Shown: piece after piece, positions 5,367-25,064 of the stretch | How the letters are laid out: the number at the start of each line of letters is the position of its first letter | Position numbering within the stretch: position 1 is the stretch's first letter | Virus record (IMG/VR): IMGVR_UViG_2563366842_000009 | Length of the DNA: 29,651 nucleotides | Origin: a virus | Lineage: Duplodnaviria; Heunggongvirae; Uroviricota; Caudoviricetes | Reading direction: 5' to 3' (one strand) | The notes under the pieces: generated by a model | Databases searched by the model: none | What the model saw: the letters and a program-made list of their open reading frames with translations, nothing else | What the model was told of the DNA's origin: nothing | Made by a program: the position numbers and the translations under genes

Positions 5367-7591
5367 GCGTTAATTATGCTTACCCGTGGAACACTCCACG
5401 GTCGGCAATAGCCAGCCCATATCTTACCTATAACCAACAGCATCGCCGCGACCGTATGTTCGCGGCTTTGCTGCATGCGAGAAAGGTGCTTTCTCTGCAG
5501 CCTGAGTGCGTGCGATTTGACGTTTATCGCACCGCTGAAGTGCTGGAACAAAATCAGGGCAGTCAACGAGCCAATGCTTTTTTAATCAACTTCTGCAAAA
5601 AGGCATTGCCGCGTCTTGAACTGGTCGCAAAAAAATATGAGTGTGCAGGCATTAGCAGCGATGTATCAGGCGCTGTTTTCGGTGGTCATTTCGATACGAA
5701 ATATATGCAGTATCTGGCATCACGTATGGTCAATATGGTCGCCAGATACAACCGCCTCCCGGATATGTCGCGTGCCGACATTGACCTGCTTTCTGCTGAT
5801 ATCGCTAATTTTATTCGTGCTGAACTGGCAGAACATGATGACGCTGATTCACATTTCGGCGAGTTGGCGACATTACATGGCTGGTACATGCGCGCCGGAT
5901 TAATTGCGCTGCAATTTGGTGTTACTCCTCCTCATTGGGCGGGACTGACAACAAAATACTTTGACCAGGACAAAGCGGCGCCAGCAATCATGCGCATGTT
6001 TAATGAGGTTTGGTGGCGTGGCCGTCTGCGACGCATTGCTGCGTCATGGCGCGAACATCTGCAAATTGCAGTCGGTAATGTCAGCAAAAAACGACACGCC
6101 TACGCGAGTAAAAATTGTGTGACCGACTGGCGCGAGCAGAAGCGCCGCACGCGTGAATTTCTCAAAGGGCTGGATCTCGAAGACGAAGACGGCAACCGCA
6201 TCAGCCTGATTGAAAAATATGATGGCTCGGTCGCCAACCCTGCGATACGTCGCTGCGAGCTGATGACCCGCATCCGTGGGTTTGAAAATATCTGTAATGA
6301 ACTCGGTTATGTCGGGGAGTTTTACACCCTGACCGCGCCGTCTAAATATCACGCCACAACTAAAGCAGGCTACCGTAACAGCAAATGGAACGGAGCCAGC
6401 CCGTCGGACACGCAGAGTTATCTCACTGGCCTTTGGGCGCGCATACGCGCCAAGCTACACCGTGAAGAAATCCGCATTTTCGGCATCCGTGTTGCCGAGC
6501 CTCATCACGACGGGACGCCTCACTGGCACATGCTTATGTTTATGCTGCCGGAAGACGTTGAGCGTGTGCGCCTCATTATTCGCGATTATGCGTGGGAGGA
6601 AGACCACCACGAACTGAGAAGCGATAAAGCCAAAAAGGCACGTTTTCATGCCGAAGCCATTGACCCGGAAAAGGGCAGCGCTACCGGCTATGTCGCTAAA
6701 TACATTTCCAAAAACATCGACGGATATGCTCTTGATGGTGAAACCGATGACGAAAGCGGTGAGCTGCTGAAAGAGACAGCTCCCGCCGTATCAGCATGGG
6801 CGGCGCGCTGGCACATCCGTCAGTTCCAGTTTATCGGCGGTGCGCCGGTGACGGTCTACCGTGAATTACGTCGTCTCGCTGATACCGAGACCGCGCACGG
6901 TCTGAGCGTTGAGTTTGCTGCCGTCCATGATGCCGCTGACGCCGGTGACTGGGCTGGTTACGTTAATTCGCAGGGTGGTCCGTTTGTCCGTCGCGATGAT
7001 TTACAGGTGCGCACGCTGTATGAGCCGCGCCCCGAGTTTAACCAGTATGGTGAGGAAACCGTCTGCATTCGTGGCGTCTACGACTCTGCTGTCGGTGCTG
7101 GCACCCCGATTTTAACCCGGTTAACGCAGTGGAAAATTGTGCCGAAGCGTGCCGTTGATTTGGCCGTTGACGTTAAGGGCGCTCCTGCGCCCTCTCGGAG
7201 TTCTGTCAATAACTGTACGGGAAGCGAAAGCGATCCACCGGAACTCGATTTATCAAAACCCCTGAGTCGACGTGAAAGACGAGAGCTGACCAACCGACTC
7301 AGGAAGCAAAAGCCAGCAATACGGCGAAAATTCATCCACGGAACGGATGAGCAAAACGCAGCTATAGCTAAAACTATCGACGAGATACAACTGACAACCG
7401 GCATTACAATCGGCCGTGGCGAAGCCCTGCACCTGATGGCCGGTGGTAAAAGTTGTTTTGATGGCAAATGGCTACGCGGAACGGCCAAAGGAGAAATATT
7501 CTTAGCAGCACCATCGCATCAGGCTAAGGCTAGAAAAATCCTTTATCGTGTTGCTGCGATGGCTGAGGCATCAAAACCAATGCCTGAGTAA
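5357..7591 (+). CDS. A: Rolling-circle replication initiator endonuclease (P2 gpA family)
   Basis: 744 aa. HUH-type metal-binding motif (TPHWHMLMF) and catalytic tyrosine motif (GYVAKYISKNIDG) characteristic of P2 A / phiX174 A-type replicases; size and position match P2 gpA. Confidence 0.9.
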   Translation: MRVSVNYAYPWNTPRSAIASPYLTYNQQHRRDRMFAALLHARKVLSLQPECVRFDVYRTAEVLEQNQGSQRANAFLINFCKKALPRLELVAKKYECAGISSDVSGAVFGGHFDTKYMQYLASRMVNMVARYNRLPDMSRADIDLLSADIANFIRAELAEHDDADSHFGELATLHGWYMRAGLIALQFGVTPPHWAGLTTKYFDQDKAAPAIMRMFNEVWWRGRLRRIAASWREHLQIAVGNVSKKRHAYASKNCVTDWREQKRRTREFLKGLDLEDEDGNRISLIEKYDGSVANPAIRRCELMTRIRGFENICNELGYVGEFYTLTAPSKYHATTKAGYRNSKWNGASPSDTQSYLTGLWARIRAKLHREEIRIFGIRVAEPHHDGTPHWHMLMFMLPEDVERVRLIIRDYAWEEDHHELRSDKAKKARFHAEAIDPEKGSATGYVAKYISKNIDGYALDGETDDESGELLKETAPAVSAWAARWHIRQFQFIGGAPVTVYRELRRLADTETAHGLSVEFAAVHDAADAGDWAGYVNSQGGPFVRRDDLQVRTLYEPRPEFNQYGEETVCIRGVYDSAVGAGTPILTRLTQWKIVPKRAVDLAVDVKGAPAPSRSSVNNCTGSESDPPELDLSKPLSRRERRELTNRLRKQKPAIRRKFIHGTDEQNAAIAKTIDEIQLTTGITIGRGEALHLMAGGKSCFDGKWLRGTAKGEIFLAAPSHQAKARKILYRVAAMAEASKPMPE

Positions 7592-10616: not shown

Positions 10617-12385
10617 TAGTTGAACTCCAGAATAGATTTAGGCTGCATGCCGCTACCGGCAGAAAGCGGTTCGTTTAACAGGGCGTGCATGGTCGCCCAT
10701 GCGATATCGGCGTGACTGGCTTCCTCGGTGCGGCTGGCCTCGTAGGTGGCACTGCGCCCGCTGCTGGTCATGGTTTTGCGAATAGACATAAACGACTGCG
10801 TGACGTCGGTTGCCCCGGCGTCGTACTCCAGACAGCCACGGCGAATGGTGTCTTTCGCCTTGAGTACCATCGCGGTTTTCATCTCAGGTGTGTAACGGAT
10901 GCCGCGTGCTGCCGGGTAGAATGAGCGCACCAACTGGAACACGCCGAGGCCGAGGCCGGTTGCGTCAATGCCGATGTATTCGACGTTGTATTTCTCGGTC
11001 AGCTTGCGGATGCCCTCTGCCTGCGCGGCAAAGTCCATGCCCTTCCACTGGTGGCGCTCCAGCATGCGGAACTTGCCACCCGAGACCACCGGCGGCGCGA
11101 GCACGACGCACCCGGCACTGTCGCCAGTGTGCGACGGGTCGTAGCCAATCCAGACCGGGCGAGAGCCGAAAGGATGGTCGGCGAACGGGGCAAAATCCTC
11201 CCATTCTTCCATCACATCGACCATGCAGCGCTGCAGCTCCTCGAACGGGAATACCGATGCCTTATCGTCGACAAACTCGCACATAAACAGGTTTTTAAAA
11301 TCATCATCACTGTTTTCGCGTTTGAGCTGGTCGAGGTCGAACAGGGTGCAGCCCCCGGCAAGGGCGTCCTCAATGGTGACAATCTGCCGCCACTGGCCAT
11401 CGTCGCAGAGCTGACCACCGGCGAGCGCGCGGTGACTGATGTCGATTTCGATGCGGTCAGCGGCACTGGCGCGCCCCTTGTTGAACAGCTCACCCGACCA
11501 GAAGGGGTAAGCCCCGTGCGCCAGTGTTGAGGGGGTCGAAAAGTAGGTTGAGCGCAGGTGCTTCTGCGATGCCATGCCCGAGGCGACTTTGCGCAGTTTC
11601 TGAAAGTTCGGGATCCAGAATATTTCATCGACATACAGGTCGCCGTTATGGCTCTGCGCGGTGTTGGAATTGGTACCGAGAAAAATCAGTTTTGCGCCGT
11701 TGTTGCCGATGACAATTGGGTCGCCGGTCAGGTCGACGTCGACCAGTCGCGCAAACTGGATGATGTATTCGCGGAACACGTAAGCCTGCGTTTTACTGGC
11801 TGACAGAAATATCTGGTTATGGCCGGTTTTGAGCGCGCGCAGCAGCGCCTCGCGGGAGAAATAGAACGTCGCGCCAATCTGGCGTGATTTGAGAATGTCG
11901 CGAATACGGTGTTCCAGCCCTGCGCGGTACCACTGCAACTGATACTCGAAAGACTGGTCGAAAAATAATTCCTCCAGTTTCTCGATAGCCTCGTCGCTGA
12001 AAAAATTCTTTTTCGGCTTTTTGCGCTCCCCTTTGTTGCGGTTGGCGACGTTGGGGTTAAGGTCGGCCTCGTTGCCGGTCTGGCTGTAGCGGTTGACGCG
12101 CGCCAGCCGCTCAATCTGCCGCCCGAGCAGGTCAATCTCTTTGAAATCGCCGCCTGTCTTTTGCGGCTTGGCGATGAGCTGAATCAGCCTGGCCTCAAGG
12201 CTGCTTTCAACGCGGGAAATCGGCGCGATGCCGTCCCAGCCGTCGCGCTGCTTCCAGCTCTGCACGGTCGGGCGCTTGACCTGCAGCATTTCGGCAATCT
12301 GTGGCACGGAAAAGCCCTGCCAGTAAAGCAGCGATGCCTGTCGTCGCGGGTCATGCAACAAGGTTGTATCGGTGGAAATGGTCAT
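10616..12385 (-). CDS. P: Terminase large (ATPase) subunit (P2 gpP family)
   Basis: 589 aa, size and sequence consistent with P2 P; divergent from O as in P2. Confidence 0.9.
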   Translation of the reverse strand: MTISTDTTLLHDPRRQASLLYWQGFSVPQIAEMLQVKRPTVQSWKQRDGWDGIAPISRVESSLEARLIQLIAKPQKTGGDFKEIDLLGRQIERLARVNRYSQTGNEADLNPNVANRNKGERKKPKKNFFSDEAIEKLEELFFDQSFEYQLQWYRAGLEHRIRDILKSRQIGATFYFSREALLRALKTGHNQIFLSASKTQAYVFREYIIQFARLVDVDLTGDPIVIGNNGAKLIFLGTNSNTAQSHNGDLYVDEIFWIPNFQKLRKVASGMASQKHLRSTYFSTPSTLAHGAYPFWSGELFNKGRASAADRIEIDISHRALAGGQLCDDGQWRQIVTIEDALAGGCTLFDLDQLKRENSDDDFKNLFMCEFVDDKASVFPFEELQRCMVDVMEEWEDFAPFADHPFGSRPVWIGYDPSHTGDSAGCVVLAPPVVSGGKFRMLERHQWKGMDFAAQAEGIRKLTEKYNVEYIGIDATGLGLGVFQLVRSFYPAARGIRYTPEMKTAMVLKAKDTIRRGCLEYDAGATDVTQSFMSIRKTMTSSGRSATYEASRTEEASHADIAWATMHALLNEPLSAGSGMQPKSILEFN

Positions 12386-12550
12386 TGATGCCTCGCCGTA
12401 GTGGATTCAGGGCAAGGCTACTTAATGGCCGTCAGTGATTCGCTAAGGTGCTGTTGTGTGGGCGATTGTCCAGCCGTCGTTAGTGGTCTGGCGTGCCCTG
12501 AGTCTGGAAACTGGCGTTGACCAGTAACCCTAACCTCAGGACTCCTGACA

Positions 12551-13405
12551 ATGGCAAAAAAAGTCTCAAAATTCTTTCGCATCGGCGTCGAGGGTGATAC
12601 CTGCGACGGGCGCATTATCAGCGCCAGTGATATTCAGGAAATGGCCGAAACCTATGACCCGCGCGTCTACGGTTGCCGTATCAACCTTGAACACCTGCGC
12701 GGCCTGCTGCCTGATGGCATATTCAAGCGTTATGGCGATGTGGTCGAGCTGAAAGCCGAGAAAATTGACGACGATTCTGCGCTTAACGGCAAATGGGCGT
12801 TGTTCGCTAAAATCACCCCGACCGATGACCTTATTGCGATGAATAAAGCCGCGCAGAAGGTCTACACCTCAATGGAAATTCAGCCGAATTTTGCCAATAC
12901 CGGCAAATGCTATCTCGTTGGTCTGGCTGTGACCGATGACCCGGCAAGCCTTGGCACCGAATACCTCGAATTCTGTCGCAATGCAAAACACAATCCGCTT
13001 AACCGATTTAAGGCTAACCCTGAAAACCTGATTTCAGCGGCAACGCTTGCAGAGCTTGAGTTTGAAGACCAGCCGGAAACGGTATTTACCGCCCTGACTG
13101 ACAAGGTGAAAGCCATTTTCAGCCGTAAGCAGGTCAGCGACGATGCGCGCCTGAATGATGTGCATGAAGCGGTGACCACCGTCAGCGAACATGTGCAGAC
13201 CAACCTGACCAAACAGGACGAGCGCCTTTCTGCTATGGAAACCGCGTTTGCCACCTTGAGTAAGGAGCTGACCGGCAAGGTTGAAGAAACCAGCCAGGCA
13301 TTTTCCGCCCTGAAAACCACCCTCGATAAAACCGAAAGTTTCAGCCAGCCGCGACGCACGAAAGCCAGCGGCGGTGGCGGCGATGAGCTGCTGACCGACT
13401 GCTGA
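12551..13405 (+). CDS. O: Capsid scaffolding protein (P2 gpO family)
   Basis: 284 aa, same length as P2 O as recalled, first gene of the rightward head operon. Confidence 0.9.
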   Translation: MAKKVSKFFRIGVEGDTCDGRIISASDIQEMAETYDPRVYGCRINLEHLRGLLPDGIFKRYGDVVELKAEKIDDDSALNGKWALFAKITPTDDLIAMNKAAQKVYTSMEIQPNFANTGKCYLVGLAVTDDPASLGTEYLEFCRNAKHNPLNRFKANPENLISAATLAELEFEDQPETVFTALTDKVKAIFSRKQVSDDARLNDVHEAVTTVSEHVQTNLTKQDERLSAMETAFATLSKELTGKVEETSQAFSALKTTLDKTESFSQPRRTKASGGGGDELLTDC

Positions 13406-13481
13406 TAAACCGCAGACCCGAAACCGGGCGGCAACCCCGCCCGATGCAGTGACTAACCGATAAATTCAAACAGGAAATACT

Positions 13482-14549
13482 ATGCGCCCGGAAACCCGTT
13501 TTAAGTTCAATGCCTATCTGAGCCAGCTCGCCAAACTGAACGGCATCAGCGTTGATGACGTCAGTAAAAAATTCGCCGTCGAGCCGTCCGTCACGCAGAC
13601 GCTGATGAACAAAGTGCAGGCGTCATCCGCGTTTTTGCAGACGATTAACCTTCTGCCGGTCGCAGAAATGAAGGGTGAAAAAATTGGCGTCGGTGTGACC
13701 GGTACTATCGCCAGCACGACCGACACCTCGGGCGATGATGAGCGTAAGACCGCAGATTTCACCGCGCTTGAGTCTAACAAGTACGAGTGCGACCAGATTA
13801 ACTTTGACTTCCATCTGAAATATAAAACCCTCGACCTGTGGGCGCGTTACCAGGACTTCCAGCGCCGTATTCGTGACGCCATTGTCCAGCGTCAGGCACT
13901 GGATTTCATCATGGCCGGTTTTAACGGTACTACCCGCGCCGCCACCTCTGACCGCACCAAAAATCCGATGCTGCAGGATGTGGCCGTCGGCTGGCTGCAG
14001 AAATACCGCAATGAAGCCCCGACGCGCGTGATGAGCAACATCACCGACGCTGACGGTAAGGTCGTTTCAGCAGTGATTCGCGTCGGTCGAAACGGCGACT
14101 ATGAGAACCTCGACGCGCTGGTGATGGATGCGACCAACAACCTGATTGATGAGGTTTATCAGGATGACCCGAAACTCGTTGCCATCGTTGGCCGTAAACT
14201 GCTGGCCGACAAATATTTCCCGCTGGTGAACAAACCTCAGGAAAACAGCGAGGCGCTCGCGGCAGATATCATCATCAGCCAGAAGCGAATCGGCAACCTG
14301 CCTGCTGTGCGTGTGCCGTACTTCCCGGCGAATGCCGTGTTAGTGACCACGCTGGAAAACCTCTCTATCTATTTTATGGATGAGAGCCACCGCCGCAGCA
14401 TTGATGAAAACCCGAAAAAAGACCGTGTGGAAAACTACGAGTCGATGAATATCGACTATGTGGTCGAGGCGTATGCCGCCGGGTGCCTGCTGGAAAACAT
14501 CACCCTGGGCGATTTCACCGCACCTGCAGCACCGGAAAGCGGAGCCTAA
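13482..14549 (+). CDS. N: Major capsid protein (P2 gpN family)
   Basis: 355 aa, following the scaffold gene; length and position match P2 N. Confidence 0.9.
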   Translation: MRPETRFKFNAYLSQLAKLNGISVDDVSKKFAVEPSVTQTLMNKVQASSAFLQTINLLPVAEMKGEKIGVGVTGTIASTTDTSGDDERKTADFTALESNKYECDQINFDFHLKYKTLDLWARYQDFQRRIRDAIVQRQALDFIMAGFNGTTRAATSDRTKNPMLQDVAVGWLQKYRNEAPTRVMSNITDADGKVVSAVIRVGRNGDYENLDALVMDATNNLIDEVYQDDPKLVAIVGRKLLADKYFPLVNKPQENSEALAADIIISQKRIGNLPAVRVPYFPANAVLVTTLENLSIYFMDESHRRSIDENPKKDRVENYESMNIDYVVEAYAAGCLLENITLGDFTAPAAPESGA

Positions 14550-14552
14550 ACC

Positions 14553-15305
14553 ATGACGAGTCCCGCACAGCGTCACATGATGCGGGTCTCGGCCTCTCAA
14601 GCCGCGCAGCGGGAGCAAGCCCCGCTGCGCCATGCAACCGCCTATGAGCAGATGCTGGTTAAGCTGGCCGATGACCGTCGCACGTTAAAAAACATCCGTT
14701 CAAACGAACGTAAAGCCGAGAAAAAGCGCGAGCTGCTGCCGTTCTATGCGCCGTGGGTCGCCGGTGTGCTGGCTGATGGCCGTGGTGCGCAGGATGACAT
14801 TGTCATGACCGTCATGCTGTGGCGTCTCGATGCCGGTGATATCGCTGGCGCGCTGGAAATTGCCCCCTACGCGCTGAAATACGGCCTCACTTCTGACCAT
14901 CGCCGCACCACACCTTACATGCTGGTTGAGGAAGTGGCACTTGCCTCGCAGCGTCTGCGCGATGCCGGTGAGTCTGTCGACCTTTCCTGGCTGCAGACCA
15001 CTATCGACCTGACCGACGGCGCAGACGTTCCCGATATGGTGCGCGCCCGTCTGCATAAGGTGACAGGCCTGACCCTGCGTGATGCCGGTATGAATGCAGA
15101 GGCGCTGGCGCAGTTTCAGCGCGCGATGCAGCTCGACCGCAATGCCGGTGTGCGCAAGGAGATTGAGCGACTGGAACGGGCATTGAAGCCAAAGCCAGAG
15201 GCCGCACCCCGTAAAACGACTAAACCGCGCACGCGCAAACCTGCCACCAGACCGGCAGCAAAGCGCGGGCGTCCACCAAAGGCGGCAAAACCGCCGGTTA
15301 ACTGA
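14553..15305 (+). CDS. M: Terminase small / endonuclease subunit (P2 gpM family)
   Basis: 250 aa with a basic Pro/Lys/Arg-rich C-terminal tail; position after N as in P2. Confidence 0.85.
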   Translation: MTSPAQRHMMRVSASQAAQREQAPLRHATAYEQMLVKLADDRRTLKNIRSNERKAEKKRELLPFYAPWVAGVLADGRGAQDDIVMTVMLWRLDAGDIAGALEIAPYALKYGLTSDHRRTTPYMLVEEVALASQRLRDAGESVDLSWLQTTIDLTDGADVPDMVRARLHKVTGLTLRDAGMNAEALAQFQRAMQLDRNAGVRKEIERLERALKPKPEAAPRKTTKPRTRKPATRPAAKRGRPPKAAKPPVN

Positions 15306-15393
15306 ACGCTCCCCGAGCCGGGCGGCACGCCGGTCAAAGCAGGCAAAGACCTGACGGCGACCGGCGTCCACCGCCCAACCTGATGAGGTTGTC

Positions 15394-15900
15394 ATGACGA
15401 CAGTGATACTGAACCAGCCCGATGAACCGCAGGACGTACCGGGCGTGGTGATTCCCGCACCGGAGACGGGCGGTGCAGTGATTAAAAACACGTTCTTTTT
15501 CCCTGATGTGGATCCGAAGCGCGTGCGCGAACTGATGCGCCTTGAGCAGACGGTTTCCGATGCGCGCCTGCGCAATGCCATCAAGACCGGCATGGCCGAG
15601 ACCAATGCGGAGCTTTACGACTACCGGCTGCGCCAGACTGCCGCCGGGTTTAAGCAACTGGCCGACGTGCCTGCCGAGGAAATCGACGGCGAGAATGTGC
15701 GCGTTTTCCACTACCTCAGCGCCGTGACGGCGATGGCGACCGCCACCCTGTATGAGCGTTATCGCGGCGTTGAGGCCACCGGCAAGGGTGACAAAAAAGC
15801 CGACAGTGTGGAAACCACCATTGATGACCTGTGGCGGGATATGCGCTGGTCAGTTGCGCGTCTGCAGGACAAGCCGCGCTGCATAGTGGGTCAGCTCTGA
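15394..15900 (+). CDS. L: Head completion/stabilisation protein (P2 gpL family)
   Basis: 168 aa; synteny and size match P2 L. Confidence 0.85.
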   Translation: MTTVILNQPDEPQDVPGVVIPAPETGGAVIKNTFFFPDVDPKRVRELMRLEQTVSDARLRNAIKTGMAETNAELYDYRLRQTAAGFKQLADVPAEEIDGENVRVFHYLSAVTAMATATLYERYRGVEATGKGDKKADSVETTIDDLWRDMRWSVARLQDKPRCIVGQL

Positions 15901-16103
15901 TGAAAGTCAGGGCAATGCAGGGCGACACCCTCGATGCGATTTGCGCCCGGTATTACGGGCGCACTGAGGGCGTGGTCGAGACGGTGCTGCAGGCTAATCC
16001 GGGTCTGTCTGAGCTGGGAGTCATTCTGCAGCATGGTACCGAGATTGACCTGCCCGATGTGCCGTCTTCACCAGTAACTAACACTATCAATCTTTGGGAG
16101 TAA
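15900..16103 (+). CDS. X: Tail protein X (P2 gpX family)
   Basis: Start at ATG 15900 overlapping the L stop (ATGA); 67 aa MKVRAMQGDTLDAICARYYGRTEGVVETVLQANPGLSELG... closely matches P2 X as recalled. The track ORF beginning at 15831 is an upstream extension. Confidence 0.9.
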   Translation: MKVRAMQGDTLDAICARYYGRTEGVVETVLQANPGLSELGVILQHGTEIDLPDVPSSPVTNTINLWE

Positions 16104-16106
16104 ACC

Positions 16107-16403
16107 ATGACAGAAGGGGAAAAAGGCGTCCTGTCACTGTTTGTGATTGGCGTGATGATTGTTGTCGGGAAAGTGCTGGCAGGTGGTGAGCCCATCACCC
16201 CGCGCCTGTTTGTCGGACGCATGCTGCTCGGCGGTTTCGTTTCGATGGTCGCCGGTGTTGTTCTGGTGCAGTTTCCGGATATGTCACTGCCTGCCGTGTG
16301 CGGGATTGGATCCATGCTCGGCATTGCCGGTTATCAGGTGGTGGAAATCGCCATACAGCGCCGCTTTAAGTCACAGAAAGGGGAAGACAATGCCGGTCAT
16401 TAA
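16107..16403 (+). CDS. Y: Holin (P2 gpY family)
   Basis: 98 aa with hydrophobic transmembrane segments and a charged C-terminus, directly upstream of the endolysin. Confidence 0.85.
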   Translation: MTEGEKGVLSLFVIGVMIVVGKVLAGGEPITPRLFVGRMLLGGFVSMVAGVVLVQFPDMSLPAVCGIGSMLGIAGYQVVEIAIQRRFKSQKGEDNAGH

Positions 16404-16887
16404 TACTCACCAGAATATCGCCGCCTTTCTGGACATGCTGGCGTATTCCGAAGGAACAGCGAACCATCCGCTGACGAAAAACCGTGGCTATGACGTCATT
16501 GTCACCGGTCTTGATGGTAAGCCAGAGATTTTCACCGATTACAGCGACCACCCTTTCGCACATGGCCGACCACCGAAAGTGTTTAATCGCCGTGGTGAGA
16601 AATCCACGGCATCGGGGCGTTACCAGCAGCTTTATCTGTTCTGGCCGCACTATAAAAAACAGCTCTCGTTGCCTGATTTCAGTCCACTGTCGCAGGACAG
16701 GCTCGCGATCCAGTTAATCCGGGAACGCGGTGCTATTGACGATATCCGGGCGGGGCGTATTGAGCGTGCTGTTTCCCGTTGTCGCAATATATGGGCGTCA
16801 TTACCGGGTGCCGGTTACGGCCAGCGCGAGCACAGTCTCGAAAAGCTGGTCACTGTCTGGCGCACGGCTGGCGGGGTGGTGGCATGA
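16390..16887 (+). CDS. K: Endolysin / lysozyme (P2 gpK family)
   Basis: Start at ATG 16390 (MPVINTHQNIAAFLDMLAYSEGT...), overlapping the holin 3' end; the track ORF from 16159 carries a spurious N-terminal extension. Sequence matches P2 K as recalled. Confidence 0.9.
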   Translation: MPVINTHQNIAAFLDMLAYSEGTANHPLTKNRGYDVIVTGLDGKPEIFTDYSDHPFAHGRPPKVFNRRGEKSTASGRYQQLYLFWPHYKKQLSLPDFSPLSQDRLAIQLIRERGAIDDIRAGRIERAVSRCRNIWASLPGAGYGQREHSLEKLVTVWRTAGGVVA

Positions 16888-17297
16888 AAGTCCTGATAAC
16901 GCTGCTTGTGCTGGCTGTGCTCGGGTTGCTGTGGTTGCGCCATGAGAACGGCAATTTATCCCGCTCTTTTGAGGCGGCAAATCGTGTCGCGAGCGAGCAA
17001 AAGACGACGATTGGCATGCTGAAAAATCAGCTCAGTGTTGCCGGTCAGCTCGCCCGACGTAATGAATCCGCGCAGGTGGCACTGCGCGAGCAGCTCGCAA
17101 AGGCAAGTGCAGAAGCCAGCCGCCGTGAGCAGACGATAACGAGGTTACTTAATGAAAATGAAGCCTTTCGCCGCTGGTATAACGCTGCTCTGCCTGATGT
17201 TGTGCGTCGGTTGCACACCCGCCCTGCCTGCGCCAGCGCCGGTGATTGTGGTCAACGGATGCCCGAAGGTGAGCCTTTGCCCGATGCCGGGAAATGA
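16884..17297 (+). CDS. lysB: i-spanin (LysB / Rz-like)
   Basis: Start at ATG 16884 (ATGA overlap with K stop); N-terminal TMD (MKVLITLLVLAVLGLLWL) followed by a coiled-coil region and C-terminal ...RRLH.RPAC....DC.QRMPE.EPLPDAG as in P2 LysB. Confidence 0.85.
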   Translation: MKVLITLLVLAVLGLLWLRHENGNLSRSFEAANRVASEQKTTIGMLKNQLSVAGQLARRNESAQVALREQLAKASAEASRREQTITRLLNENEAFRRWYNAALPDVVRRLHTRPACASAGDCGQRMPEGEPLPDAGK

Positions 17298-17442: not shown

Positions 17443-17872
17443 CGCCGTGCCGCAGCTCCGAAATAACCCCGATATGCTGCGCCTGTTTGCCGACAACGGC
17501 CATACCGATTCCCGACTGGCGAGCTCGCTGTCGTTTGAAAAGGTGTACGTGCTTAACGTGGTGGTGACTGACTTCACCGGCGACCTCGACTTGATATTTG
17601 TGCCGGTGCAGGCGTGGCTGCGTGAGCATCAGCCGGACATTATGACCACCGACGCCGGGAGGGATAAAGGATTCACCTGGATGATTGATATCAATAACGA
17701 CGATTCGCTCGATATCAGTATCAGCCTGAGACTCACCGAGCGCACGCTCGTCAAAGAGGTCGACGGCGCACTGCACGTCAGCTATGCGCCGGAGCCGTCG
17801 CTGCCTGAACCCGTGACGCGCCCGGTCGAGCTGTACGTTAACGGTGAGCTGGTGAGTAAGTGGGATGAGTGA
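17405..17872 (+). CDS. R: Tail completion protein R (P2 gpR family)
   Basis: Start chosen at ATG 17405 (155 aa, matching the P2 R length); strong recalled similarity (NPDMLR.F.DNG, SLSFEK.Y.LNV.VTDFTGD.DL, PDIMTTD, ELYVNGELVSKWDE). Confidence 0.9.
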   Translation: MQKHKSLRKALINAVPQLRNNPDMLRLFADNGHTDSRLASSLSFEKVYVLNVVVTDFTGDLDLIFVPVQAWLREHQPDIMTTDAGRDKGFTWMIDINNDDSLDISISLRLTERTLVKEVDGALHVSYAPEPSLPEPVTRPVELYVNGELVSKWDE

Positions 17873-18314
17873 GTTAACCGCACTGCAGGAGCGCCTTGCC
17901 GGTCTGATTGCCAGCCTGTCACCGGCGGCGCGTCGTCAAATGGCGGCTGAGATTGCGAAAAAGCTGCGCGCCAGTCAGCAACAGCGCATTAAGCGGCAGC
18001 AGGCACCCGACGGCACCCCGTATGCCGCGCGAAAGCGCCAGCCGGTGCGGAGCAAGAAAGGGCGCATTAAGCGCGAAATGTTCACCAGACTGCGCACCAG
18101 TCGCTTTATGAAAGCCAAAGGCAGCGACAGTGCGGCGGTGGTGGAGTTTACCGGCAAGGTGCAGCGCATGGCGCGGGTGCATCAGTACGGGCTCAAAGAC
18201 CGGCCAAACCGCAACAGCCGCGATGTGCAGTACGAGGCGCGCCCGTTGCTCGGTTTCACTCATGACGATGAGCAGATGATTGAAGACGTCATTCTCAGTC
18301 ACCTCGGCAAATAA
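17865..18314 (+). CDS. S: Tail completion protein S (P2 gpS family)
   Basis: 149 aa; overlaps the R stop; matches P2 S. Confidence 0.9.
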   Translation: MSELTALQERLAGLIASLSPAARRQMAAEIAKKLRASQQQRIKRQQAPDGTPYAARKRQPVRSKKGRIKREMFTRLRTSRFMKAKGSDSAAVVEFTGKVQRMARVHQYGLKDRPNRNSRDVQYEARPLLGFTHDDEQMIEDVILSHLGK

Positions 18315-18382
18315 ATATTGTGTGAGCCATCACCGGAGCCGCGCGAATTGGCGCGGCTCCAGACCAGAGGCATTCTTGCACT

Positions 18383-19024
18383 ATGAATACGTTATCCACT
18401 CTACAGGAGCTCGCGCGCGCAATTCGCAACCTCATCCGCTCAGGTGTGGTGACTGAGGTCGATACCGTGCAGGGGCTGTGCCGCGTACAAAGCGGCGGGA
18501 TCCAGACTACATGGCTGAACTGGCTTACTACCCGCGCCGGTCGTTCTCGTACATGGTGGGCTCCCTCGGTCGGTGAGCAGGTACTGCTGCTGGCGATTGG
18601 TGGTGAGCTTGATACCGCTTTCGTGCTGCCGGGAATTTTTTCCGACGATAACCCCGCCCCGTCAGCCTCGGCGGATGCGTGGCATGTGGTGTTCCCTGAT
18701 GGCGCGGTTATGGAGTATGAGCCGGAAACCGGTGCACTGACGGTCAGCGGCATCAAAACTGCCGATGTGACGGCATCGGAGTCCATCACCGCCACCGTGC
18801 CGGTGGTGCTGGTTAAAGCGGCAGAGCGTATCACCCTCGACACCCCGGAGGTGGTCTGCACCAACAAACTGACGACGGCGACGCTTGAGGTGCGGAAAGG
18901 CGGCACCATGCGGGGAAACATCGAACATACCGGCGGTACGTTGAAATCAAATGGTGTGCAGGTTGATGACCACGGTCACGGTGGCGTGCAACGGGGCGGG
19001 AGCTGGACGGAGGGCACCAAATGA
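18383..19024 (+). CDS. V: Baseplate spike / assembly protein V (P2 gpV family)
   Basis: 213 aa; first gene of the baseplate operon; synteny. Confidence 0.85.
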   Translation: MNTLSTLQELARAIRNLIRSGVVTEVDTVQGLCRVQSGGIQTTWLNWLTTRAGRSRTWWAPSVGEQVLLLAIGGELDTAFVLPGIFSDDNPAPSASADAWHVVFPDGAVMEYEPETGALTVSGIKTADVTASESITATVPVVLVKAAERITLDTPEVVCTNKLTTATLEVRKGGTMRGNIEHTGGTLKSNGVQVDDHGHGGVQRGGSWTEGTK

Positions 19025-23157: not shown

Positions 23158-23160
23158 AAG

Positions 23161-23186
23161 AAGCGGGTTAAACCCGCTTTCTTTTT
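23161..23186 (+). terminator. Intrinsic terminator after G (stem aagcgggt / acccgctt, then TCTTTTT)
   Basis: Perfect 8-bp stem with a 3-nt loop, followed by a T-run, immediately after the G stop codon. Confidence 0.7.
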
Positions 23187-24479: not shown

Positions 24480-25001
24480 ATGGCACTACCCCGCAAACTT
24501 AAATATCTGAACATGTTCAATGACGGCCTTAGCTATATGGGCGTTGTTGAATCCGTGACGCTGCCGAAGCTGACCCGCAAGCTCGAAAACTATCGCGGCG
24601 GCGGCATGAATGGCGCGGCGGCGATTGACCTCGGCCTCGACGATGATGCACTTACCGTCGAATGGTCTGTCGGTGGCCTGCCTGATGTGGCGCTGTGGGC
24701 GCAGTATGCCGCGCCGGGTGCTGATGCCGTGCCGCTGCGTTTTGCTGGCTCTTACCAGCGTGACGACACTGGCGAAATCGTGGCAGTCGAGGTGGTCATG
24801 CGTGGCCGTCATAAAGAAATCGACGGCGGCGAGAATAAGCAGGGTGAAAACACCTCGACCAAACTGTCGACCGTTTGCACCTATTACCGCCTCACGATTG
24901 ATGGTAGCGACATTATCGAAATCGACACCGTCAACATGGTCGAGAAGGTGAACGGCGTCGACCGTCTGGAACAGCACCGCCGCGCAATCGGGCTACTGTA
25001 A
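24480..25001 (+). CDS. FII: Tail tube protein (P2 gpFII family)
   Basis: 173 aa directly after the sheath gene. Confidence 0.9.
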   Translation: MALPRKLKYLNMFNDGLSYMGVVESVTLPKLTRKLENYRGGGMNGAAAIDLGLDDDALTVEWSVGGLPDVALWAQYAAPGADAVPLRFAGSYQRDDTGEIVAVEVVMRGRHKEIDGGENKQGENTSTKLSTVCTYYRLTIDGSDIIEIDTVNMVEKVNGVDRLEQHRRAIGLL

Positions 25002-25064
25002 TTCCCTGACCGGTCAGCACCGCTGGCCGGTTATTACTCCCATTCAAAGCAGAGAAAAAACATC

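Follow-up and report, generated by a model that had tools for sequence, protein, structure and literature searches.

In a P2-family phage, what is a short, G+C-rich stem-loop doing between the genes for scaffold and capsid? The question was raised by a 29,651 nt stretch of viral DNA (IMG/VR record IMGVR_UViG_2563366842_000009; the whole stretch is referred to here as the window), which belongs to a 186/PSP3-type (Eganvirus) phage or prophage. A first-pass annotation had placed a seven-pair hairpin lacking a U-tract in the 76 nt spacer between scaffold gene O and capsid gene N, and had suggested that it could modulate the relative translation or stability of the two messages. We found the hairpin to be a genuine stem-loop of the plus-strand late messenger RNA (mRNA), selectively maintained in 186/PSP3-type phages. 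Its position and sequence (CGGGCGG/CAACC/CCGCCCG, 13425-13443, with a 5 nt loop) were exactly as annotated, and its location between O and N was confirmed by matches of the flanking genes to PF05929 and PF05125. Regarding its role, we tentatively favour, at a rough probability of 0.4, that it serves as a barrier to decay or as a segment boundary within the late O-N-M-L transcript. The parts of the hairpin are as follows.

13425..13431, plus strand: 5' arm, CGGGCGG
13432..13436, plus strand: loop, CAACC, hypervariable
13437..13443, plus strand: 3' arm, CCGCCCG

The stem comprises seven consecutive G:C pairs and, folded alone, has a predicted energy of -13.1 kcal/mol. Thermodynamic folding in a 350 nt mRNA context left both arms more than 99 % paired, and in a 100 nt context the hairpin was present in the minimum free energy (MFE) and centroid folds alike. 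Chance explains it poorly. Perfect G+C-rich hairpins of at least 7 bp were expected 0.011 times per 76 nt from dinucleotide shuffles and 0.036 times at the window's own density, and the best-hairpin score of the spacer was equalled by approximately 0.5-0.7 % of the spacer's own shuffles. The window as a whole contained 17 such hairpins (about 14 distinct) versus 4.3 +/- 2.6 in the shuffles, an excess of around fourfold that was mostly intragenic (e.g. 5445-5466, 15942-15963 and 16589-16610). This richness is one point in favour of a neutral relic, that is, a G+C-rich palindrome kept by descent, or else a remnant of an old insertion or gene conversion, and without present function. Formal covariation in the stem is also weak, and the family can dispense with the hairpin, which P2, Cartapus, phiCTX and PHL101 lack. 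We nonetheless consider a relic unlikely, for three reasons that emerge from the comparison of relatives.

Loci were gathered via the capsid protein (56 from bacterial genomes and 80 from IMG/VR), and further loci via a downstream anchor motif with no overlap with the hairpin (196 loci, 61 unique upstream sequences). The clade set was chosen by coding-flank identity alone (>=85 %; 83 sequences, 61 unique). The hairpin was present in 83 of 83 flank-selected relatives, and its core was kept at all 196 anchor-motif loci. The 14 stem columns displayed 4 extra alleles, as against the 14.0 predicted by the remaining non-coding columns (p=0.0004 by permutation), so that the stem was about 3.5 times less variable than the remaining spacer. 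All five loop columns varied, with 10 extra alleles (2.0 per column, versus 0.9-1.4 in the neighbouring spacer and approximately 0.85-1.0 at synonymous third positions), and 1 nt deletions in loci L101 and L116 shortened the loop to 4 nt. A stem that varies three to four times less than synonymous and neighbouring spacer columns, together with a loop that varies about twice as much (p=0.0004), is the first argument against a relic.

The second is that internal changes were all compatible with pairing. Among the 61 unique clade sequences, positions 13426-13431 of the 5' arm were invariant and 13425 was changed from C to A in four. The 3' arm displayed C to T changes opposite G at 13437 and 13440, yielding G.U wobbles, and a G to A change at terminal position 13443. 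The outermost pair (13425/13443) was disrupted in several sequences and a G31 to T change occurred in one; the remaining in-stem changes were all C to T opposite G, again giving G.U wobbles. In 60 of the 61 sequences a C.A mismatch at 13424/13444 prevents the stem from extending outwards, and the core consists of six G:C pairs plus a seventh, less constrained pair. Pairing-compatible variants in the clade and sister lineages included CCGTCCG, TCGCCCG, GCCCGGT in L136, and the versions found in L015 and L013. On the opposite strand the G.U-compatible changes would give C.A mismatches; they indicate RNA on the plus strand. The alignments support a selection pattern (stem kept, loop free, changes compatible with pairing) of a kind typical of a coding-strand RNA helix, and such a pattern would fit a role in message stability or processing.

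Neighbouring lineages supplied the third argument, in that hairpins of differing sequence recur at the same spot in several of them. In a Raoultella/Klebsiella-type lineage, two versions lay in register with the window stem, namely L014 (CCGGGCAA...TTGCCCGG) and L015 (CCGGGCGA...TTGCCCGG). Where the window has its two inner G-C pairs, L014 has A-U/A-U and L015 has G.U/A-U, and the states from window to L015 to L014 would make up a textbook stepwise compensatory path. Also in register were an 8 bp version including one G.U pair (L013) and the stem GCCGGGC...GCCCGGC of the L011/L135 clade. Serratia-type lineages (L022, L030/32) and L048 carried 6-9 bp hairpins with unrelated arm sequences at the same place. 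The in-register alignment paired 98 % of cells versus at most 56 % with the partner slid. Six of the 30 spacer-sequence clusters carried a hairpin at p<=0.02 versus shuffles (binomial 2.5e-5, the lineages not being independent), all beginning 1-19 nt past the stop codon; under coarser clustering the Fisher combination gave p=0.2, clusters without a hairpin having been given p=1. A U run followed none of the eight hairpin versions in other lineages.

Conservation across P2-like phages, which the first-pass annotation had put forward as a check, was therefore partial: it extended to the 186/PSP3 clade and some neighbours, and failed for P2 and many other family members. The 58 nt spacer of P2 holds only CCGG-N11-CCGG, a 4 bp remnant, or else a weak stem overlapping the stop codon, and its best hairpin was no better than chance (p=0.52). 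Spacers were as short as 21 nt in Yersinia, 10 nt in Arsenophonus, 16 nt in Cartapus and ST15-OXA48phi14.1, 35 nt in phiCTX and 13 nt in PHL101, and no hairpin was found in the short-spacer lineages phiCTX, Cartapus and PHL101. Strong hairpins (score >=17) were confined to spacers of at least 55 nt, with spacers of 10-45 nt displaying weak 4-5 bp stems or none. Absence from P2 and the short-spacer lineages indicates that the hairpin is dispensable for the family. In the spacers of P2 (L003), L021, L024, L027, L040 and L048, CCGG or CCCGG was observed right after the stop codon, with a second CCGG 5-11 nt further on; to judge by sequence, these repeats (4-6 bp stems) look like decayed or minimal post-stop hairpins.

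The confinement of strong hairpins to spacers of at least 55 nt would also suit a role against Rho, in which the hairpin folds the most C/G-rich stretch of a ribosome-free spacer, reduces Rho loading and so limits polarity in the late operon. Rho-dependent polarity occurs in P2 late operons and is suppressed by P4 Psu, and other long spacers of the late block are structured too (M-L, z=-4.4; S-V, z=-3.9; FII-E, z=-4.2). However, only 19 of the 76 nt are sequestered and the remaining spacer is unpaired; furthermore, the constancy of the stem sequence itself within the clade, as opposed to the presence of some structure, is left unexplained. We judge this explanation, like the relic, to be improbable.

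The immediate surroundings of the hairpin bear on the other roles that might be proposed for it, and comprise the following features.

12551..13405, plus strand: scaffold/protease gene O (186 V homologue), 284 aa, PF05929 Phage_GPO, E=7.6e-107
13403..13408, plus strand: tandem stops TGA-TAA closing gene O, with TAA in frame directly after TGA
13406..13481, plus strand: untranslated O-N spacer of the late polycistronic mRNA, 76 nt
13444..13470, plus strand: single-stranded A/U-rich leader from the hairpin to the ribosome-binding site (RBS), mean unpaired probability 0.73
13472-13475, plus strand: Shine-Dalgarno sequence AGGA of N, with CAGGAAA invariant in the alignments
13482-13484, plus strand: start codon ATG of N, invariant in the alignments
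13482..14549, plus strand: major capsid gene N (186 T homologue), 355 aa, PF05125 Phage_cap_P2, E=2.1e-147

The O stop lies 19 nt upstream of the hairpin and the N Shine-Dalgarno sequence 28 nt downstream. TGATAA was retained in nearly all of the 61 unique clade sequences, and the length of the spacer was 73-76 nt inside the clade and 10-76 nt family-wide. A 1 nt indel polymorphism at 13417 within the clade means that no reading frame is conserved across the spacer, and a small open reading frame (ORF) spanning it was ruled out on these grounds. The spacer region displayed nucleotide identity of 96 % to Midge, 90-94 % to SEN1, SW9, EtG and PSP3, and only about 71 % to P2; the capsid protein was 93 % identical to that of phage 186, and a prophage of E. 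coli EC6868 was a 100 % match to a 96 nt query spanning the spacer. The large terminase gene P is situated upstream of O in divergent orientation. The annotation of 186 has pV driving V-T-R-Q..., which gives the operon context for the O-N junction, and its record lists no own promoter for the N, M, L, lysis and tail-completion genes downstream. The Midge record annotates an RBS at the place equivalent to that of N in the window.

The capsid start is preceded (13455-13477 in the window) by a recurring motif, A(C)CCGAT(T/A)AA, after which come an A/U-rich run and CAGGAAA. The same arrangement is conserved in the majority of O-N spacers that reach 40 nt or more (L003-L054), those of hairpin-less lineages among them. 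In L023 this region reads GATTAACTTTATTCAGGA and contains TTAACTTTA, the 'epsilon' translational enhancer sequence of T7 gene 10. The motif region probably serves the most abundant virion protein as a leader with a strong RBS.

The first-pass suggestion of an effect on translation found, for gene N, no support in folding predictions: the unpaired probability of the Shine-Dalgarno sequence was 0.70 with the hairpin and 0.69-0.70 if it was disrupted or deleted. As predicted accessibility of the N RBS was the same without the hairpin, a role as RBS insulator was rejected. A translational effect on N (or O) could also arise if the hairpin blocked post-termination sliding of ribosomes to the N start, uncoupling N from O, or if it shaped the N leader. 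Its site between the O stop and the N Shine-Dalgarno sequence would be apt for this, and hairpin-less lineages tend to have short spacers in which coupling is likely, as in Cartapus, where GGAG comes right after the stop. Apart from the unchanged accessibility of the Shine-Dalgarno sequence and start, the sole alternative pairing found also tells against it. CCGGGCG (13424-13430, the 5' arm and the preceding C) is exactly complementary to codons 2-4 of N, CGCCCGG (13485-13491), and this pairing appeared in silico only once the 3' arm was mutated. These codons occur in the window, PSP3 and a few relatives and are lost in Midge-/186-type sequences beginning ATGCGTCAGG; the pairing was dismissed because the codon sequence is not conserved in the clade. 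Translational modulation thus strikes us as very unlikely.

A Rho-independent terminator was likewise rejected. The stem would be adequate, but the tail, AUGCAGUGACUA, has no U run. The absence of a U-tract noted in the first-pass annotation was upheld, with the 3' flank reading ATGCAGTGACTA and the site going uncalled in a terminator scan of 12000-17000. Nor does the 186 record, rich in annotations, mark a terminator at this site. The hairpin resembles Rho-independent terminators, including tI of 186, in that it is short and G+C-rich and follows a structural gene with high expression in a late operon of the same phage group, and differs from them in lacking the U-rich tail. A terminator here would cut off N, M, L and the lysis and tail-completion genes. 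True terminators of this phage carry U tails, which also argues that the O-N hairpin is not one. A canonical intrinsic terminator was observed at 23160-23180 on the plus strand after the tail-fibre assembly gene (GAAGCGGGTTAAACCCGCTTT followed by CTTTTT) and was equated by position with t45 of 186. A 12-pair hairpin followed by UAUUACU (25007-25033, plus strand; z=-4.2) lies between the tail tube gene (24480..25001) and an E-like gene (25065..), and was equated, from its position after the tube gene, with the feature annotated in 186 as 'tI; partial terminator of pJ transcript'.

The O-N hairpin would be stable in the nascent RNA, and phages of this group have a hairpin acting as partial terminator behind the tail tube gene. 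Both points favour a pause site or weak attenuator at which RNA polymerase is slowed or sometimes released, slightly reducing transcription past O. The missing U tract, both here and in the eight versions from other lineages, and the negative terminator scan speak against it. Attenuation would moreover yield less capsid relative to scaffold, apparently the opposite of the stoichiometric need. We see only a slim chance that the hairpin works in this way.

Several further candidates were tried and set aside. A minus-strand terminator and a protein-bound DNA palindrome were excluded, since the wobble changes fit the plus strand only, loop lengths range over 3-7 nt between lineages and the minus-strand tails are not U-rich. 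An internal late promoter upstream of N, dependent on Ogr/B, was rejected in that neither an activator site nor promoter-like hexamers were found. A scan of 12600-17000 revealed no promoter-like site. No TGT-N12-ACA was present near the spacer, a weak negative since the pattern was also missing at the window's known late-promoter regions and may misfit the clade. A dispersed palindrome of the repetitive extragenic palindromic (REP) or bacterial interspersed mosaic element (BIME) type was ruled out by copy number: the hairpin is single-copy within the window, and the spacer matched 66 of 5426 E. coli genomes at one place each, always at the GPO scaffold/P2 capsid junction. In T7, RNase III processing hairpins between late mRNA cistrons become protective 3' ends, and the O-N hairpin resembles these in lying between phage late cistrons. 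RNase III requires roughly two helical turns of duplex, however, and a stem of just 7 bp is too short for a processing signal of the T7 type (an interrupted duplex of about 20 bp).

The O-N hairpin had no match in Rfam 15 at the gathering threshold over the whole window, and the best match at E<=10 over 13350-13550 had E>=0.16, far below gathering. It is unannotated in the Midge, PSP3, P2, 186 and PGAP records, although promoters, B-protein sites and terminators are marked elsewhere in the 186 record. A text search of the literature found no published description of the O-N hairpin or of the M-L structure described below, and no transcript-processing or segment-abundance data for P2/186-type phages.

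The anatomy of the junction is what suggests a decay barrier. A hairpin on the coding strand, without a U tail, begins soon after a stop codon, is followed by an A/U-rich leader of about 27 nt, and is found in long spacers only. We propose that an endonuclease would cut the single-stranded A/U-rich N leader just downstream of the hairpin, for which 13444-13470 is the candidate site (the same stretch being a candidate ribosome standby region). The hairpin, without a U tract, would then block the 3'-to-5' exonucleases PNPase and RNase II. The scaffold segment would live longer, decay of the scaffold and capsid segments would be uncoupled, and the outcome would be a form of selective RNA processing and stabilisation, through which the ratio of gpO to gpN might be affected. 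REP elements act as mRNA stabilisers in the E. coli malEFG operon. A G+C-rich hairpin without a U tract, located 3' of a cistron in a polycistronic operon for the subunits of one assembly, is a feature that the O-N junction shares with REP elements and with the cip-cel operon of C. cellulolyticum, where stem-loops at cistron 3' ends set subunit stoichiometry (PMC4423207). The likeness extends to the unstructured A/U-rich stretch adjoining the hairpin and to its energy, -13 kcal/mol being within the range of such barriers. The O-N hairpin is known here from sequence, and unlike REP elements it is not dispersed, occurring as one copy per prophage and always at this junction.

A number of points weigh against a decay barrier. 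The mechanism is argued from anatomy and analogy, and it is not obvious why protection should fall to the scaffold message and not to that of the capsid, which is far more abundant. P2 and many relatives lack the hairpin, as do about half of the clusters, indicating that any effect is modest or lineage-specific. The covariation score of 0.085 was equalled by controls slid by -1 and -2, and true covariation is thin, involving two pairs and probably one evolutionary event, so that the case rests mainly on differential conservation plus pairing-compatible change. Finally, the MFE of the whole spacer was not unusual (z=-1.1, p=0.14), because the spacer outside the hairpin is unstructured; hairpin-bearing spacers gave z-scores of only -1 to -3, making whole-spacer energy a poor statistic here.

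As a decay barrier, the hairpin would be an accessory tuning device, since related phages with short, probably translationally coupled spacers manage without it. It is optional, ordinary operon punctuation, neither a terminator nor a new kind of element. To the intercistronic mRNA stem-loops under selection it adds a well-documented, unannotated example from a classic phage group, and through it one could readily ask how P2/186-type phages derive their scaffold-to-capsid ratio from one transcript. Its main value is indirect, in that the comparison of operon spacers exposed a larger, strongly covarying RNA structure between the M and L genes, which spans enterobacterial to Pseudomonas, Ralstonia and Mannheimia phages and merits more attention than the O-N hairpin itself. 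The features concerned are as follows.

14553..15305: small terminase gene M, 3' of N
15308-15390, plus strand: M-L structured RNA, about 85 nt, with four or five helices
15308-18, plus strand: small hairpin P1
15320-25 with 15371-76, plus strand: outer helix GGGCGG/CCGCCC
Interior, 5' to 3': one-nucleotide bulge (C), 9 bp inner helix with a variable tip, and an invariant CCA internal loop
15377-90, plus strand: hairpin sequestering the Shine-Dalgarno sequence of L
15394..15900: gene L, head-completion protein, 3' of M

The M-L spacer (15306-15393, plus strand; 88 nt) folds at -45.9 kcal/mol (z=-4.4), and its structured RNA is conserved across Peduoviridae and strongly covarying. In a 43-sequence alignment, 98.1 % of cells paired and compensatory double changes were present at 10 of 20 pairs. 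The covariation score was 0.294 versus 0.107 in shuffles, none of 500 of which reached 0.294, and at most 0.07 in slid controls. The covariance model built from this alignment (R1) matched P2 (E=9e-31), Cartapus (E=2e-17), Yersinia Firavirus (E=1e-15), Ralstonia RsoM1USA (E=7.5e-9), Pseudomonas phiCTX (E=2e-7) and, weakly, Mannheimia PHL101 (E=0.018). A loose sequence pattern for the element matched at least 120 IMG/VR contigs. Among 116 newly fetched pattern loci, 99 were flanked by both M and L homologues and 104 had an L homologue downstream, whilst the other 12 look like chance matches, mostly inside ORFs. Overall, the element was seen in L005-L140, L275-L280 and approximately 100 of L281-L396. 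It has no match in Rfam 15 and is unannotated in the P2, 186 and PGAP records; the depositors of PHL101 marked a 'terminator' at its position. By analogy, its architecture resembles an RNase III site of the T7 type or a translational operator.

The two spacers are marginally similar in sequence, which raises the question of whether the O-N hairpin could be a scaled-down second copy, or a second binding site, of the M-L RNA and be recognised by the same factor.

13417..13433, plus strand: 17 nt string CCCGAAACCGGGCGGCA, whose sole other near-copy in the window is CCCGAGCCGGGCGGCA at 15312-15327, on the 5' side of the M-L element

The O-N hairpin would then be a stripped-down second site of the M-L recognition system, both marking the mRNA of the head genes for a single factor, which could be a processing nuclease, a protein of the phage or RNA polymerase (as in put-type antitermination); if so, that factor would set the relative output of the scaffold, capsid, terminase and head-completion genes. 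The two elements share strand and operon, both begin soon after a stop codon, and both have an identical GGGCGG/CCGCCC helix in which CCGCCC is the 3' strand. The shared 5' 16/17-mer, CCCGAR(N)CCGGGCGGCA, has just two occurrences in the window, at 13417-33 and 15312-27 (2 versus 0 expected, the pattern being post hoc, defined after both sequences had been seen), the exact 10-mer CCGGGCGGCA is restricted to the same two sites, and in L013 an 11-mer, CCGGGCGGCAC, is common to both spacers. Against these likenesses, a cmsearch of R1 with filters off found only 15299-15415 (113.9 bits) and nothing at 13400-13480 at E<=10. Local alignment gave p of approximately 0.013-0.025 versus shuffles, and other tiles of the window scored equally high. 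The O-N hairpins of other lineages differ in sequence, and the O-N loop is free to vary, whereas the C/CCA internal loop of the M-L element is invariant. The two differ in size and range as well, the O-N hairpin being lineage-restricted and 19 nt long and the M-L element family-wide and about 85 nt, with massive covariation. A common origin or a common factor for the two is in our estimation a long shot.

Two further spacers of these late regions displayed features of their own. In L277 (Yersinia phage vB_YenM_42.18) the M-L spacer is 233 nt. Within it, at locus 162-254, the depositors marked a 30 aa hypothetical ORF, and the R1 match lies downstream of this at 272-392; the additional length may reflect an insertion beside the M-L structured element. 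A perfect 10 bp hairpin without a U tract, GGAGCCGCGC-GAATTG-GCGCGGCTCC, lies at 18335-18360 on the plus strand of the window, where the phage 186 record has nothing annotated at the equivalent place. It occupies a 68 nt spacer between S-like (17865..18314) and V-like (18383..19024) genes, and the MFE of this spacer is -31.2 kcal/mol (z=-3.9).

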